This document shows positions 19,009 through 51,380 of a stretch of DNA of 64,000 bases, in pieces (the stretch's first letter is position 1; each line of letters opens with the position of its first letter). The stretch spans positions 130,636,001 to 130,700,000 of the forward strand of contig CM059431.1 of NCBI GenBank assembly GCA_030390025.1, given 5' to 3'. Origin of the DNA: Squalus acanthias. Its lineage: Eukaryota. The notes under the pieces are model-generated. The model did not search any database and had not been told where the DNA came from. It was given only the letters and a program-made list of their open reading frames with translations. The position numbers were made by a program, and so were the translations under genes.

Positions 19009-19203
19009 TTTGTAAATTACACATGCCCGCAATGCACAGATGTGGTTGAAAGCTCAGTCCAACTGTTTTGAGGTAAAAATATTTAGTCAAAACCCAGGCT
19101 TTTAAGATAGCAAAATACTGCGGATGCTGGAAATCTGAAAAAAACAACAGAAAACGCTAGAAAAACTCAGCAGGCCAGGCAGCATCCGTGGAGAGAGAAA
19201 GAG

Positions 19204-19240
19204 AGTTAACGTTTCAGGTCGATGACCTTTCGTCAGAACT
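19204..19240 (-). ncRNA. Minimal type I hammerhead ribozyme motif (inverted arm)
   Basis: Reverse complement of 22629-22665. Confidence 0.8.
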
Positions 19241-19924
19241 GTGAAGAGCCGGAAATCAAATAGATTTAAGGCCAGAGTAAAGCTGGTAAAAGGGGGAGGG
19301 GATAAAAGAACAAAGGGGGAGATGAAGAGACATTAAGAGACATTAAGAGATATGCAAGGCTAGAGGTGGTGTTAATGTGACAGATTAAGGCTGAAAGAAG
19401 TGTGAAATCCACTGGCAGAATGAAGGACAGCTGCCAGCTTCTAGGAGGAAAAAAAAGGTGGGGGGGGCAAATAAAAGGGTGGAAAAAATAAAATATAAAT
19501 GTGATTGGAGCTGAGGTTATGATCTAAAATTGTTGAACTCGATATTGAGTCCAGAGGGCTGTAGCGTGCCTAAACGAAAGATGAGGTGCTGTTCCTCGAG
19601 CTTACGCTGCGCTTCCGTGGAACAGTGTAATAGGCCGAGGACGGTGAGGTCAGAGTGGGAGTGAAGCGGTGAATTAAAGTGACAGGCCACCGGGAGCTCG
19701 GGGTCCCCCTTACGGACTGAACGGAGGTGTTCCGCAAAGCGGTCACCCAATCTGCGTTTGGTCTCCCCAATGTAGAGGAGACCACATCATGAGCAGCGAA
19801 TACAGTATACTAATTTGCAGGAAGTACAAGTAAATCGCTGTTTCACCTGGAAGGGGTGTTTGGGGCCCTGGACAGTGGGAAGAGGGGAGGTGTAAGGGCA
19901 TGTGTTGCATCTCCTGTGCGTGCA

Positions 19925-22351
19925 TCTCTCGACATCTCTCTTCAGCAGCACCGACGCACTCTATCTCAAAGCTGTCCGGGTCCACAGTTCCATTTCATCC
20001 TTAGACTCATCCGACGCTTCAACAAAAAACTTTTCTTCTTCCTTTCCGATGTCAAGGATCGCAAGCTTCAACAACTCTTGGACACTAACGCCCCTCCGGA
20101 ACCTTCTTCCCCTTCACTTTCCTCTGACCCCCCTTCTCCCAATCTCACCCCCTGCCGCGTTTTCACTATCCCCTCTGACCTTCCCCTCTCTGACTCCGAA
20201 CGATCAGTCCTCAGCAAAAGCCTGACCTTCATCCCCTTACGCCCCCATCTCAATGAATTTCGAGCTCGGCACGATGCTGAGCTCTTTTTCCGCCGCCTCC
20301 GTCTCCGTGCCCACTTCTCTGGCCAGGAGTCTTCCCCCCGCACGGCTGACCCTTTCTCCCGCTTTCAGAATTCTCGTTCCACCTGGACCCCTCCCTCTGG
20401 CCTCTTACCCTCTCTAGATCTTTTCATTGCTAACTGCCGCCGTGACATCGGCCAGCTCAATTTCTCTGCTCCCCTCACTCACTCCAGCCTACCTCCCTCT
20501 GAACTTGCAGCACTCCATTCTCTCCGATCCAACCCTGACATTGTCATTAAACCTGCTGACAACGGTGGCGCTGTTGTTGTTTGGCGAACCGACCTCTACC
20601 TAGTGGAAGTTGAACGCCAACTCTATGACACCTCCTCCTACCTCCACCTGGACCATGACCCCACTACTGAACATCAAGCCACCGTGTCCAAGACCGTCAC
20701 TGACCTCATCTCCTCTGGAGATCTTCCCGCCACGGCCGCCAACCTCATAGTTCCCCAACCGCGCACAGCCCGCTTCTACCTCCTTCCCAAGATCCACAAA
20801 CAGGACTGCCCCGGTAGACCCATCGTTTCAGCCTGTTCTTGCCCCACGGAACTTATCTCTTCCTATCTCGACTCTATTTTTTCTCCCCTTGTCCAGTCTC
20901 TTCCCACCTACATCCGCGACTCTTCCGATGCCCTCCGCCATTTTAACAGTTTCCAGTTTCCCGGCCCCAACCGTCTCCTCTTCACTATGGACGTACAATC
21001 CCTCTACACCTCCATTCCCCACCAGGATGGCCTGAGGGCGCTCCGCTTCTTCCTTGAACAGAGGCCCAACCAGTCCCCATCCACCACCACCCTCCTCCGC
21101 CTGGCTGAACTTGTTCTCACATTGAACAACTTCTCCTTTGACTCTACCCATTTCCTCCAAATTAAAGGTGTTGCTATGGGTACCCGCATGGGTCCTAGCT
21201 ATGCCTGCCTTTTCGTGGGATATGTGGAACACTCTTTGTTCCAGTCCTACTCGGGTCCCCTCCCTTACCTCTTTTTCCGGTACATTGATGACTGTATCGG
21301 TGCCGTCTCCTGCTCTCGCCCTGAACTAGAACATTTCATTCACTATGCTTCCAATTTCCACCCTTCCCTCACCTTCACATGGTCCATCTCCGACTCTTCC
21401 CTTCCCTTCCTCGACTTCTCCATCTCCATCTCTGGGGATAGGTTATTGACTAACATTCACTACAAGCCCACTGACTCCCACAGCTACCTGGACTACACTT
21501 CCTCCCACCCCGCCTCCTGTAAGGACTCTATTCCATTCTCCCAGTTTCTCCGTCTCCGCCGCATCTGCTCTGATGATGCCACCTTTCATACCAGTGCTTC
21601 CGACATGTCTTCCTTTTTCCTCAACCGAGGATTCCCCTCTACCGTGGTCGACACGGCCCTCGACCGTGTCCGTTCTATCTCCCGCACTTCTGCCCTCAAC
21701 GCTGCCCCTCCCTCCCGGAACCACGATAGGGTTCCCCTTGTCCTCACCTTTCACCCCACCAGCCTCCACATTCAACGGATCATCCTCCGCCATTTCCGCC
21801 ACCTCCAGCGTGATCCCACCACCAAACACATCTTCCCCTCACCTCCCCTTTCAGCATTCCGCAGGGACCGCTCCCTCCGCGATACCCTAGTCCACTCCTC
21901 TACCACCCCCAGCACCCCTTCCCCTTCGCCCGGCACCTTCCCGTGCACGCGCAGGAGATGCAACACATGCCCTTACACCTCCCCTCTTCCCACTGTCCAG
22001 GGCCCCAAACACCCCTTCCAGGTGAAACAGCGATTTACTTGTACTTCCTGCAATTTAGTATACTGTATTCGCTGCTCACGATGTGGTCTCCTCTACATTG
22101 GGGAGACCAAACGCAGATTGGGTGACCGCTTTGCGGAACACCTCCGTTCAGTCCGTAAGGGGGACCCCGAGCTCCCGGTGGCCTGTCACTGTAATTCACC
22201 GCTTCACTCCCACTCTGACCTCACCGTCCTCGGCCTATTACACTGTTCCACGGAAGCGCAGCGTAAGCTCGAGGAACAGCACCTCATCTTTCGTTTAGGC
22301 ACGCTACAGCCCTCTGGACTCAATATCGAGTTCAACAATTTTAGATCATAA
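19925..22351 (+). CDS. Penelope-like reverse transcriptase + GIY-YIG endonuclease (5'-truncated, otherwise uninterrupted)
   Basis: IKPAD, FYLLPKIHK, GRPIVS, FTMDVQSLYT, GVAMGTRMGPSYA, RYIDD, LPFLD, HYKPT; C-x4-C-x2-C linker; NLVYCIRCSRCGLLYIGETKRRLGDRFAEH. The first ~23 codons of the listed 831-aa ORF come from the inverted arm. Confidence 0.95.
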   Translation, partial: SLDISLQQHRRTLSQSCPGPQFHFILRLIRRFNKKLFFFLSDVKDRKLQQLLDTNAPPEPSSPSLSSDPPSPNLTPCRVFTIPSDLPLSDSERSVLSKSLTFIPLRPHLNEFRARHDAELFFRRLRLRAHFSGQESSPRTADPFSRFQNSRSTWTPPSGLLPSLDLFIANCRRDIGQLNFSAPLTHSSLPPSELAALHSLRSNPDIVIKPADNGGAVVVWRTDLYLVEVERQLYDTSSYLHLDHDPTTEHQATVSKTVTDLISSGDLPATAANLIVPQPRTARFYLLPKIHKQDCPGRPIVSACSCPTELISSYLDSIFSPLVQSLPTYIRDSSDALRHFNSFQFPGPNRLLFTMDVQSLYTSIPHQDGLRALRFFLEQRPNQSPSTTTLLRLAELVLTLNNFSFDSTHFLQIKGVAMGTRMGPSYACLFVGYVEHSLFQSYSGPLPYLFFRYIDDCIGAVSCSRPELEHFIHYASNFHPSLTFTWSISDSSLPFLDFSISISGDRLLTNIHYKPTDSHSYLDYTSSHPASCKDSIPFSQFLRLRRICSDDATFHTSASDMSSFFLNRGFPSTVVDTALDRVRSISRTSALNAAPPSRNHDRVPLVLTFHPTSLHIQRIILRHFRHLQRDPTTKHIFPSPPLSAFRRDRSLRDTLVHSSTTPSTPSPSPGTFPCTRRRCNTCPYTSPLPTVQGPKHPFQVKQRFTCTSCNLVYCIRCSRCGLLYIGETKRRLGDRFAEHLRSVRKGDPELPVACHCNSPLHSHSDLTVLGLLHCSTEAQRKLEEQHLIFRLGTLQPSGLNIEFNNFRS

Positions 22352-22628
22352 CCTCAGCTCCAATCACATTTATATTTTATTTTTTCCACCCTTTTATTTG
22401 CCCCCCCCCACCTTTTTTTTCCTCCTAGAAGCTGGCAGCTGTCCTTCATTCTGCCAGTGGATTTCACACTTCTTTCAGCCTTAATCTGTCACATTAACAC
22501 CACCTCTAGCCTTGCATATCTCTTAATGTCTCTTAATGTCTCTTCATCTCCCCCTTTGTTCTTTTATCCCCTCCCCCTTTTCCCAGCTTTACTCTGGCCT
22601 TAAATCTATTTGATTTCCGGCTCTTCAC

Positions 22629-22665
22629 AGTTCTGACGAAAGGTCATCGACCTGAAACGTTAACT
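22629..22665 (+). ncRNA. Minimal type I hammerhead ribozyme motif in Penelope 3' UTR/pLTR
   Basis: AGUU-CUGACGA-A-AGGUC(AUC)GACCU-GAAA-CG-UU-AACU: intact core, 5-bp stem II, palindromic AACGUU in place of stem III, stem I AGUU/AACU. Confidence 0.8.
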
Positions 22666-23199
22666 CTCTTTCTCTCTCCACGGATGCTGCCTGGCCTGCT
22701 GAGTTTTTCCAGCGTTTTCTGTTGTTTTCCCAGGCTTTTAAGTCCTGCTGAGGCCTTAAAGTAAAAACTTTAAAGAAGGCTTTAAGCACACAAACGACAA
22801 TTTAATAGTTCAATTCATTCATGCTATTGGGAAATGTGTATTTTTTTTAATTTTGTTTAAAATATTATTTTGGATATTGAAAATTTATTAGAAAAATTGA
22901 TGCATGGATTCTTTTTCACAAAGCTTTTTGAGCGAGTCTGTTGGTTCAACAACAAACATGACAGTTAAATGTTTAAATAGTGATTTTCGTTATAAAATAC
23001 TGACATGTTTGGATAGGGTCTTCTCATTATAAAATGTTGACATGATTAGATAGGTTTTTCCATTATAAATGTTTACATAAGCAGTTTCTATCACACCATA
23101 AATTTTAACATAAAAATTATTACTGTAAAGAACATTTGTAGACAGGAAGTTTCTTGTCATGTGCAGTATTTTTTTATAATATGTTGATTATATGCATTT

Positions 23200-23612
23200 C
23201 CAGGTAGGTCTTAGGTTTGATCCCTGGTTTGTGCTCAGTTAGCTCACCTCACCCGTGATAGCTGTAAAGATACTACAATTAGACTTAACAGCCGAAAATG
23301 CTGGAGATACTCAGCAGGTCAGGCAGCATCTGTGAAGAGAGAAACAGAGTTAACGTTTCAGGTCGATGACCTTTCGTCAGAACCAGTCCAGTGCATTGCG
23401 GGCACCAGTTCTGACGAAAAGTCATCGACCTGAAACGTTAACTCTGTTCCTCTCTTCACAGATGCGGCCTGACCTGCTGAGTATCTCCAGCATTTTCTGT
23501 TTTTATTTCAGATTTCCAGCATCTGCAGTATTTTCTTTTTGTAGACTTAACAGCCTATGTTATCAACCAGGTTTGTTGCTCCAAAGTGCTATCAGTGACC
23601 CCCTGCTCTTTG
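23200..23612 (+). mobile_element. Old tRNA-derived SINE remnant interrupted by the Penelope hairpin
   Basis: B-box-like ggtttgatccc followed by tgtgctcagttagct; resumes as ctccaaagtgctatcagtgaccccctgct after the insertion; similar sequence near 63150-63245. Confidence 0.4.
23294..23541. mobile_element. 248-bp Penelope-derived hairpin element with two hammerhead motifs (23349-23383 minus, 23407-23443 plus)
   Basis: 14-bp TSD tagacttaacagcc at 23280-23293 and 23542-23555; ~90-bp inverted arms homologous to 22630-22720; ~44-nt tail homologous to 19107-19150. Confidence 0.93.
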
Positions 23613-26127: not shown

Positions 26128-26370
26128 ATGGTGCATTGTGGTAACGTCACTGGGCTAGTAATCCAGAGGCCTGGACTAATGATCCAGAGACGTGAGTTCA
26201 AATCCCACCATGGCAGCTGGGGAATTTAAATTCAGTTAATTAAATAAAAAGCTAGTATCAGTAATGTAGGAAACAGTAAGTGTATCGAGGTGTACGGACC
26301 AAAGGCGGGTAAATGGAGTAAAGGTACAGACCAGCCATTGTCGTAAAAACCCATCTGGTTTACTAATGAC
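26128..26370 (+). mobile_element. tRNA-derived SINE head/fragment
   Basis: A-box-like tggtgcattgtggtaa and B-box gagttcaaatccc (26196-26208). Confidence 0.6.
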
Positions 26371-48695: not shown

Positions 48696-48965
48696 TAGAA
48701 TCATAGAATGGTTACAGCACAGAAGAGGCCATTCAGCCCGTCGAGCCCGTGCTAGCTCTCTGCAAGAGCACTTCAGCTAGTCCCACTCCACCGCCCTTTC
48801 CCCACAGCCCTGCAAATTTTTTTCCTTCAGGTACTTATCCAATTCCCTTTTGAAAGCCACGATTGAATCTGCCTCCACCACCCTTTCAGGCTGTGCATCC
48901 CAGATCATAACCACTAGCTGCATAAAAAAAGTTTTTCCTCATGTCACCTTTGGTTCTTCTGCCGC
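48696..48965 (-). mobile_element. CR1 3' fragment nested in Harbinger
   Basis: atagaatcatagaatggttacagcacag tail; similar to the reverse complement of 4750-5005. Confidence 0.85.
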
Positions 48966-49121
48966 TTCTCATTCAAAGTGTGTCAGGTGAGGTAGAAGTG
49001 AGAAGGCGGATTAGGTATGCAGAAACCCTAGTCATCGATCTCACCAACGCCCCCTCCCATTATTGCCAGGACGGTCTCCTCCAGGGGGTTGAGTACGTGA
49101 AGGCGTGCTGCTTCTCCACCA

Positions 49122-49339
49122 TGATGTGGAGATGCCGGTGTTGGACTGGGGTGGACAAATGTGAGAAGTCGCACAACACCAGGTTATAGTCCAACAGCTT
49201 TATTTGAAATCACAAGCTTTCGGAGCGGCTGCTCCTTCGTCAGGTGAAGAAGGAGCACCTGATGAAGGAGCAGCGCTCCGAAAGTTTGTGATTTCAAATA
49301 AAGCTGTTGGACTATAACCTGGTGTTGTGCGACTTCTCA
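49122..49339. mobile_element. 218-bp hairpin element of a second Penelope-type family with two hammerhead motifs (49211-49246 minus, 49256-49290 plus)
   Basis: 13-bp TSD tgcttctccacca at 49109-49121 and 49340-49352; arms 49162-49246 and 49256-49339; 40-nt tail at 49122-49161; core CAC-CUGAYGA-A-GGAGC(loop)GCUCC-GAAA-GY-UU-GUG. Confidence 0.9.
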
Positions 49340-51380
49340 TGCTTCTCCACCAGTAACAGTTTGCTACCTCCTATTATGCACAACCTCCTCCTGCAAGAAA
49401 GAGGGAAGTGCGTTTGTGAGTGTCTGTGATATGTCTGGCTGATGTATCTGTGATGGCTGAATAGCTGGCAATGTGTGTGTGGGATATGAGTTGTGGGTGT
49501 GAAGTTTTTTATAGTGCTGAATGTGTGAGGGTGATGTTAAGCATATCAATTGAAATGTTCAGTACTGATTAATAGAGATTGTATGTGGGTGGGGGTGGAT
49601 TGAATCCAGCAGTTGATGAGGCTAGTGGTGCAGCTCTTATGAAAAGCCATGTGAAGGTTGACAACTTTGGTCCAATCTTTAAACTTCTCCTGACACTGCA
49701 TCCAGGTACGTGGAGCCATACTCCTCGCAGTCACCTCTTCGGCGACCTTCTCTAACTGCCTCTTCATCATGTGACATGAAGGCTTCCTGCCCCCAGTGGT
49801 TAGAGGATGTCTCTCCTCCTCTCAACCTCCTGCACCAAGGACTCCAGTGCACATCGGAAAACCTTGGTGCACGCACTCTACCAGATTCAGCCATTTGAGT
49901 AATAGATTTTTCACAGAAGTTCTGCTCAGCACTTTTTGTACTGTCTCCCTTTAAGTAGCGTTGTGCACTTCCCATATTGGGCCGTCTTCTCATGTGTGCA
50001 GTCAATGAACGACACGGGTAGCACTGGCTGCATCCAGCAATCATTGAAATCAGCAGGTGGCATAGACTTTACGTGCTGCCTGCATCGCAATCAACGGGTG
50101 TGAGTTAATTATGTCCCATGATCCCATTCTCCCGTGTTATGGAATTTAACCCCACCTTATGTTTGATCTGCACTTTCTTTGAGTGCAACTTTACAGCTGG
50201 GAGCGCAAGAAGAAATTAAATCTGTAGTGATTATAGTTCTTTTTCCTGGTAGACTGTTATAATTAGGGATTTCAATTCTACAAATTATAATGGAAATTTT
50301 CCTATAATTTCAGAAATAAGGCATTTTAGCATCTATTCCTACGCAAAACATTTTCAGTGTCTTAAATAAGAACATTGCATACATTTGGAATCCATTTTAA
50401 AACTGTGGTGTACTTTTGTGGATCACAGAATTGTGATCAGGCCAAATGAAATACAAAATATGATGTTTTTATTGAGAAAACAGCGCTGACCTGTTTTTCT
50501 ATTTTTGTATCTTTTCCACATTGACAGCTGATGTGGATTATCCATATAAAACCTTCATTAATGTCTGGTAATAAAAATGTTTATGTGCCAAATTAAATAG
50601 TGCCATGTAAATATGCTATAAAATCCTATTTTGAAACACAGTTCTGCTCCTGACAGGAAAACAGCACAAATGTGGTTTCAAAATCTACAAAGATTCATCA
50701 TAATAATAATAAACGATGGCGGGTTTGGGACATTAACTTATTAGTGCTTATTGCAGTAAATCCTTCTCATCACAGAAGGAAACAGCAGTGATTTGGTACC
50801 TGATACCACGTTGAATATAAATAATGCAGTTATTGCATCAAATACAATCTCAGTAGTAGCATACACTAGTGCATTAAAACTAATTAAATTGTATTCATGA
50901 ATTGTAATGTGATCTAAAAGTACAAGTAAACTTATGGCAGCTATCACTGGTCCTGCACAACACAGCCTCAGGCATAGACTGTCTACTAAGAGGTAATTTT
51001 ACTTTCAGTTAAATCTTGCTACATGATTTATCATTCCAAATATAGATTTACAGATTTGCAGCATGCAACATAATTCATCAGGTGCACTGTCCACGCAGTT
51101 GCACGTAGAATAGTCAAATTGAGAAACATCAAGACAGGAAATCTGTAGCCCTTCCGATGCACTCCTGCCGTAAGTGTGGCAGACGTGCAGCAGTAGAGTT
51201 GGAACTTAGGCCGGAAGCCAGAAACAGCGGCTCCCCATCTGTTTCAGCAGAGCATTGTTTAGGACAAAGCATCCACCCTTCCCAAACAAGGTCACCCGTA
51301 TCAGAGGGGGAATGGCTGAGGGGTGCAGACTCTGGGCCACGGCTCCAGCCTGGAAACATATTGGCAGGTTGGCAGACCCA

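Follow-up and report, generated by a model that had tools for sequence, protein, structure and literature searches.

The hairpin at 49109..49352 of the window, the whole 64-kb stretch of DNA analyzed here, almost certainly represents the shortest form of the head-to-head insertions made by an abundant Penelope-like retrotransposon (PLE) of the Neptune type. We believe, with a probability of about 0.6, that the insertion arose when two target-primed cDNAs ran off the 5' end of the element's RNA just upstream of its hammerhead ribozyme and were joined head to head. The original prediction had regarded the hammerhead region as a preferred stop or template-switch point in Penelope integration. Arm ends do cluster in this region, but naming the hammerhead as their cause is probably wrong. 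For the hairpin's family, we could directly observe its identity, the ORF linkage, the target-site duplication (TSD), and two sharp 3' ends 31-41 nt apart, as well as the 5'-end clustering, its specificity for the first crossing of the hammerhead, and the near-unique junction of the hairpin.

The coordinates confirmed the predicted 218-bp insert with a 13-bp TSD, a 40-nt tail, and arms of about 85 bp. The two copies of the TSD (TGCTTCTCCACCA; 49109..49121 and 49340..49352, plus strand) enclose the insert of 218 bp at 49122-49339. The one-sided 40-nt tail (49122..49161, minus strand) extends as far as base 1 of the start codon of the element, which is likely the outer reverse-transcription start site. 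On a position scale that sets the C of CUGANGA to 0, the tail-side arm, a leader/pLTR segment (49162..49249, minus strand), reaches from -6, one base short of the predicted transcription start at -7, to the inner start site, and the inverted tail-less arm (49256..49339, plus strand) reaches from -3 to the inner start site. When 49162-49246 (85 nt) and 49256-49339 (84 nt) are aligned, 82 of the 85 columns are identical, and the arms differ by two substitutions and one indel. Their loop II variants are different, AGCC in the tail-side and AGC in the tail-less arm. The predicted spacer of 9 nt is present at the center, but three of its nucleotides extend the tail-side arm. The true filler is the remaining 6 nt (49250..49255, plus strand), which repeat +6..+11 of the other arm as a templated insertion of bases from the adjoining arm. 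The insert region folds as one hairpin (-188.8 kcal/mol, z -23.9), and 0 of 200 shuffles were equally stable. Just downstream of the hammerhead, an AATAAA hexamer (49199..49204, minus strand) resembles a polyadenylation signal and might act as one; the same hexamer is found in long copies.

Each arm carries one hammerhead, and both face outward. The tail-side one (49210..49247, minus strand) is a minimal type I hammerhead with an intact motif, identified by a descriptor match and its local fold. It is composed of stem I UCAC/GUGA, CUGACGA, an extra A, stem II GGAGC/GCUCC with the AGCC loop, GAAA, and a palindromic AAGCUU, and it would be cut between 49214 and 49213. The arm thus combines CUGANGA and GAAA cores, an extra base before stem II, the G10.1-C11.1 pair, a palindromic stem III remnant, and an NUH triplet. 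The minimal hammerheads of PLEs in the accessible text of PMC4209133 likewise have a conserved core, the extra base, the G10.1-C11.1 pair, a palindromic 15.2-16.2, and a short stem I; compared with them, the hammerhead here would have a CUU triplet. The second minimal hammerhead (49256..49290, plus strand) is weakened, with a stem I of 3 bp and AAGUUU in place of the palindrome, so that the predicted AAGCUU is intact in the tail-side arm and altered in the tail-less arm. A hammerhead does lie in each arm, and the tail-side arm runs on to -6, three bases further than originally predicted. The minimal-hammerhead descriptor found five sites in the window, all within the two Penelope families present there, and the same number in total when the window was base-shuffled 20 times. 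Across subfamilies, covariation is seen in stem II. A scan with the Rfam hammerhead covariance models, which the original prediction had recommended, gave no match at E<=1 in the window. In any read-through RNA, both hammerheads are predicted to be sequestered within the 84-bp hairpin.

The original prediction had expected the arm to be linked to a Penelope ORF and the break points to cluster near the ribozyme, and both were found. Locus L031 contains an ORF with a Pfam RVT_1 match (E 2e-9) and a GIY-YIG region; the arm of the hairpin lies on either side of it, as direct pLTRs with 141 nt identical. The whole is preceded by a 2.9-kb inverted tail-less copy between 13-bp TSDs, which is the design of the hairpin at a larger scale. 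The GIY-YIG match in L033 was weak (E 8e-4, below the cut-off), although the core with two cysteines is visible, and PF01541 is listed for many homologs. The tail joined to the ORF start gave 391 exact matches. The closest named proteins to the family's ORF are from sharks, with 82-92% identity. Proteins of both families contain a CX4CxxC linker between the RT and the endonuclease; according to the available portions of PMC8557442, a CX2-5CxxC linker marks Neptune and is shared with Nematis. The linker motif together with the vertebrate hosts would place the family with Neptune rather than Nematis, and we therefore call it Neptune-type.

The second Penelope family is that of the palindrome at 23.3 kb in the window, and the original prediction had proposed that two different families converged on the same layout. 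A blastn search with the hairpin insert against the 23.3-kb family gave no match at E<=1. The proteins of the two families are homologous, however, with 34% identity over 680 aa, and convergence is probably wrong: the layout is general to the superfamily, and the design of tail, arm, and hammerhead appears to be inherited because both families encode homologous RTs of one superfamily. The window also contains a long copy of the 23.3-kb family (19094-22743) with an 845-aa stop-free frame (19814-22351) including RT and GIY-YIG parts. Its inverted copy measures about 0.7 kb and has the tail at the left; a 14-bp TSD and hammerheads at 19236 (minus strand) and 22633 (plus strand) are also present. 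The short palindrome (23280-23555) has a 14-bp TSD as well. The tail of this family has 19,008 exact matches, and its short copies are inverted less often (28/79) than those of the hairpin's family (62/77).

As exact patterns, a 26-nt arm piece of the hairpin's family occurs 56,256 times and a 31-nt tail piece 33,708 times in the 3.7-Gb genome. We sampled the first 100 listed tail matches together with the window element, 101 in all. The window element itself, a second-crossing pLTR, a compound copy, and two duplicates sharing their flanks were set aside, and the remaining 96 independent copies were analyzed. The samples came from one contig, from its first 9 Mb for the hairpin's family and 23 Mb for the 23.3-kb family, and an exact 31-nt tail was required. 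The pLTRs of the family are direct in L031, tandem in units of about 3,138 bp, and inverted in 82 of the 96 tail-anchored copies. The predicted recurrent class of short palindromes does exist: in 47 of the 96, both arms stop at or before -13 and contain no ORF sequence. A TSD was found in 68 of the 80 short copies tested (window element included), with a length of 12-13 bp in 50 of the 68. Of 68 copies, 56 have the 3' end of the tail at -1..+4 relative to the ATG, and the tail-less arms of most copies end at a sharp site 31-41 nt before the ATG. Two loci, L188 and L191 (G000:C2:211213566-211223012 and G000:C2:175562952-175569269), are head-to-tail arrays of four and three units spaced about 3,138-3,142 bp apart and are candidate multimeric source loci.

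Could such palindromes be a non-autonomous MITE-like family moving as one unit, or a pre-miRNA? The long inverted arms and the TSD are what such a family would have, and the hairpin drew its best Rfam match from MIR396, a plant microRNA model, in line with the anticipated confusion with pre-miRNAs. The score of 37.7 bits is, however, less than half the cut-off of 80. The tail is one-sided, the arm is part of a Penelope element, and the junctions vary from copy to copy. The 22-nt junction of the hairpin occurs at two genomic places, the window and L254 (G000:C6:41693105), against the 33,708 tail matches. L254 was inserted independently: it has the 9-nt center of the hairpin, whereas its loop II and its flanks are different. 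This recurrence of the junction would speak for transposition as a unit. A fixed-unit MITE family was ruled out by this junction count, and the explanation as a whole is extremely improbable. Since the junction of the hairpin recurs at a single further locus in different surroundings, the short palindromes are built at insertion and not copied as a unit; a finished palindrome may occasionally be copied again. L256, L257, and L258 (G000:C1:3433148, 3966991, and 3983681) have one unusual junction in common within 0.6 Mb, and two of them differ in flanks and tail-side loop II, which suggests local gene conversion or re-copying of a finished palindrome. Another junction, in which a short TG filler precedes the end at -7, is common to four independent loci (L242, L243, L248, and L251), reflecting either a preferred repair path or an aborted snap-back.

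The ends of the arms were mapped against 18 real long copies per family, as a single reference was distorted by subfamily differences at stem II. Tail-side ends fell within the 31-nt interval of -13..+17 in 49 of the 81 copies of the hairpin's family that reach it (three end-calling rules gave 48-49/81), compared with 4/32 in the next stretch upstream, -14..-44. Further downstream, 7/96 ended in +83..+31 and 8/89 in +30..+18. For 100 copies of the 23.3-kb family, the counts were 42/82 in the 31-nt interval and 3/40 just upstream. The per-base probability of an end increases about 20-fold between +83..+31 and +17..-13 in both families, and it drops 7- to 9-fold immediately upstream of -13. When the ends were placed relative to the CUGANGA core, as had been suggested, they peaked on the far (5') side of the whole ribozyme, at the predicted initiator. 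A TATA-like box is present at -34..-44 in 18/18 reference copies, and 30 nt behind it an initiator-like TCACTTC has its A at -7. We take -7 to be the predicted transcription start, based on the Inr consensus and the TATA spacing.

Genome-wide exact counts for one subfamily resolved this edge to the base, with 2,370 ends at -6, 3,956 at -7, and 613 at -8, which correspond to 11.7%, 22.1%, and 4.4% ending at the respective positions. The share at -7 falls to 15.9% without the T class, for the most part a templated variant. The edge is not strict: 13,324 of the 20,263 matches go past -9. Among the sampled ends, 21/109 are at -7/-6, 17/109 at -4/-3 (the stem I edge), and 14/109 at -9..-12. Ordinary random 5' truncation by an enzyme of low early processivity, with the hammerhead and the start site at a typical length by chance, would agree with the arm lengths, which form a continuum from <60 nt to 3 kb and are coupled between the arms; 5' truncation is also general in PLEs, as far as the accessible part of PMC8557442 goes. 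The steep rise and fall in two families and the single-base step from 22% to 4% between -7 and -8 nevertheless make this explanation very unlikely.

Two further candidate signals were weak. A peak at the cleavage site amounts to four tail-side ends, each no more than one base away from the predicted cut. An excess of G beside the -7 ends might have marked a cap: by hand count of the first 100 listed, 58 G and 14 A stood beside -7 ends, and 43 G and 33 A at -8. This signal is not clean, since the partner arm or arm-copied filler supplied the G in 13 of 20 inspected G cases. In the public runs, which were available as contigs of uncertain kind, no RNA start or end was seen.

The same hammerhead is crossed a second time by copies that contain the ORF, and there it seldom marks an end. 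In a matched subfamily, 3/40 second crossings ended at the hammerhead, against 13/30 first crossings (p=0.0006), or 5/40 when ends at -17 and -19 are included (p=0.005). The 40 were obtained from 50 ORF-start copies after leaving out two with an ORF stopping within 30 nt, four with internal jumps, and four ending before +17; three of the 40 come from one locus. The two families offered a second comparison. Stem I starts at -4 in both, whereas the initiator-like A of the 23.3-kb family is at -4, and the ends in that family lie further downstream (p=0.007; p=0.07 for the narrower contrast of -7/-6 with -4/-3). The edge thus seems to shift with the initiator between families and not with stem I.

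These data bear on the explanation in which the hammerhead itself, whether folded, protein-bound, or self-cleaved, stops the RT or triggers a template switch. The strong clustering in both families, the ends at the 5' edge of stem I, and the few ends near the predicted cut would fit it. Four of the 101 junctions among those listed turn exactly on stem II or the AAGCTT palindrome, and a lizard hammerhead cleaves only with protein bound (PMC11167929, in the portions accessible). However, an enzyme traveling in the 3'-to-5' direction reaches the ribozyme at +20..+35, and only the 8/89 copies noted above end in +18..+30. The peak lies beyond the whole motif at -7 and drops at -8, the second crossing is mostly passed, and the edge follows the initiator. 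In addition, hammerhead mutants left the in vitro insertion product of the lizard element unchanged, according to the same portions of PMC11167929. The hammerhead would need to act only on a protein-bound copy beside the start site, and we consider this explanation unlikely. A run-off at the RNA 5' end, our preferred reading, has its own difficulty with the long copies. Their 5' ends had been expected to serve as start-site markers, but this was not borne out: they do not pile up at the predicted start, and 23 of 50 run >200 nt further. A second class of template must therefore be assumed.

How does the second arm arise? In one explanation, a single cDNA self-primes by fold-back and copies itself into the second arm; self-priming on an antisense template was proposed for head-to-head repeats by Arkhipova et al. 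(2013), as far as that source was available to us. Several observations are compatible with it. At 5 of 30 loci, the junction looks like a tight snap-back at -7, and seven more have short TG or GTG fillers resembling an aborted snap-back. Of 54 pairs, 44 have the same loop II variant in both arms. Almost all of the 16 internal differences that separate the arms of L031 are private. Yet either arm can be the longer one: among the 82 inverted copies, the tail-less arm goes further in 30, by >5 nt beyond the tail arm, and the tail arm goes further in 23. A simple fold-back copy cannot give this. The sharp end of the tail-less arms also speaks against fold-back, and two different common loop II variants are combined in 7/54 pairs and in the window element, several with linked differences elsewhere. 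The control for this discordance was a background mismatch of 0.7%, with three indels in a 45-nt control over 68 pairs. The discordant arms fit two simultaneous primings, at times on two RNAs, although later gene conversion could also make them. The lengths of the two arms correlate in pairs of long arms (rho 0.78, n=22), whereas pairs of short arms show no such coupling (rho 0.02, n=47), as expected if both arms run at once and the short ones hit a fixed end. Fold-back may account for a part of the copies, but as the general origin of the second arm it is quite unlikely.

With two primed cDNAs as the preferred origin, the following course can be envisaged. The endonuclease would nick both strands 12-13 bp apart, and each nick would prime one cDNA on the leading pLTR of the capped RNA. 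The two reverse transcriptions would start at the element's two sites beside the start codon and proceed over some 90-130 nt until they reach the RNA's predicted 5' end. A copy would then end at or slightly before the transcription start, which is predicted at -7 here. End-joining repair would then join the cDNAs, and trimming and microhomology would produce the smear of ends toward +17. Repair would also leave templated filler of the polymerase-theta-like kind, such as the 6 nt in the center of the hairpin. Long and tandem copies would come from multimeric, circular, or jumped templates, which are endless at the position of the hammerhead. Located at the very start of the transcript, the hammerhead would be copied along as a passenger.

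Biochemical work on a lizard PLE protein agrees with parts of this course. In the available portions of PMC11167929, the protein nicks and extends both strands in vitro, two internal start sites define the tail, shorter products are obtained on 5'-shortened templates, the protein is predicted to be a dimer, and hammerhead cleavage is not needed. This element, PAc (Poseidon, Anolis carolinensis; Frangieh et al., 2024), belongs to the Penelope/Poseidon clade, and its hammerhead overlaps the start codon with the start sites inside the ORF. In contrast, the hairpin's family is marked by a CX4CxxC linker of the Neptune type; its hammerhead is located about 120 nt upstream of the ATG, and its outer start site coincides with the ATG. 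For PLEs, hammerhead-made circles have been proposed in the accessible part of PMC4209133. A more specific joint version of our reading would hold that a dimeric enzyme primes both nicked strands, sometimes on two RNAs, that the short copies (stubs) are fossil "strong-stop" products formed by run-off from the capped leader, and that long and tandem copies derive from a separate endless template, provided by hammerhead circles or a jump to the 3' repeat. We put this forward tentatively, at somewhat less than even odds. If it is true, the transcription start can be read with single-base precision from tens of thousands of stubs in the genome, the layout of inverted pLTR plus tail is explained without an antisense template, and the hammerhead would sort RNAs into templates for short and for long copies.

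L1 twin priming, which Ostertag and Kazazian reportedly described in 2001, is said to let both nicked target strands prime cDNA and to leave a 5' inversion between TSDs with a microhomology junction. The priming of two nicked strands, the inversion between TSDs, and the microhomology junction are common to both systems. Twin priming in L1 inverts a different, more 5' stretch of the RNA, whereas the primers here start 31-41 nt apart; both therefore copy the same stretch, which yields a palindrome.

The layout with an inverted pLTR, a one-sided tail, and a TSD has been described for PLEs in the accessible portions of PMC3846280 and PMC8557442. Pen2/Pen2a_Av of Adineta vaga have a head-to-head inverted pLTR, a 30-40-nt tail at one end, and a short TSD (PMC3846280 and PMC8557442, same portions), as well as a TATA plus an Inr-like TCACT in the pLTR and a continuum of 5'-truncated copies (PMC3846280, same portion). 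Unlike in these descriptions of the Adineta vaga PLEs, the ORF-less form here makes up about half of the sampled tail-bearing copies. The same portions of the two papers credit the inversion to self-priming on an antisense template, which our arm-length and arm-variant data disfavor. Minimal hammerheads are known from fish PLEs, with opposite-strand pairs about 100-700 bp apart, and the parts of PMC4209133 covered contain no break-point mapping or explanation of these pairs. The layout and the opposite-strand hammerhead pairs are hence already known, and the single locus is ordinary. Within a limited coverage of the literature, we found no paper tying stub ends to the transcription start or comparing first with second crossings, and the accessible parts of the preprint 10.64898/2026.07.22.740005 and of PMC6431247 have nothing on inversions.

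The interest lies in the population-level tests rather than in the single hairpin. The break-point map makes the mechanism of inverted and tandem insertion and the role of the hammerhead directly testable, through a start predicted to the base in two families, first- versus second-crossing stops, and two-template arms. Applying 47/96 to the tail matches gives a rough 16,000 stubs from the hairpin's family, extrapolated from one contig. In annotation, stubs can pass for MITEs or pre-miRNAs, and they would put long perfect hairpins into host transcripts.

Some minor observations concern the surroundings of the copies. Several young copies lie inside CR1/L2-like LINE remnants, judged from the flanks of L031, L033, and L034, and certain TSDs at different loci are almost identical in sequence, a hint of target preference. 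The left flank of the hairpin (48700-48960) is a high-copy repeat with about 65 matches among the fetched loci. Elsewhere in the window, a weak tRNA-model match at 26132-26216 is probably the head of a tRNA-derived SINE.
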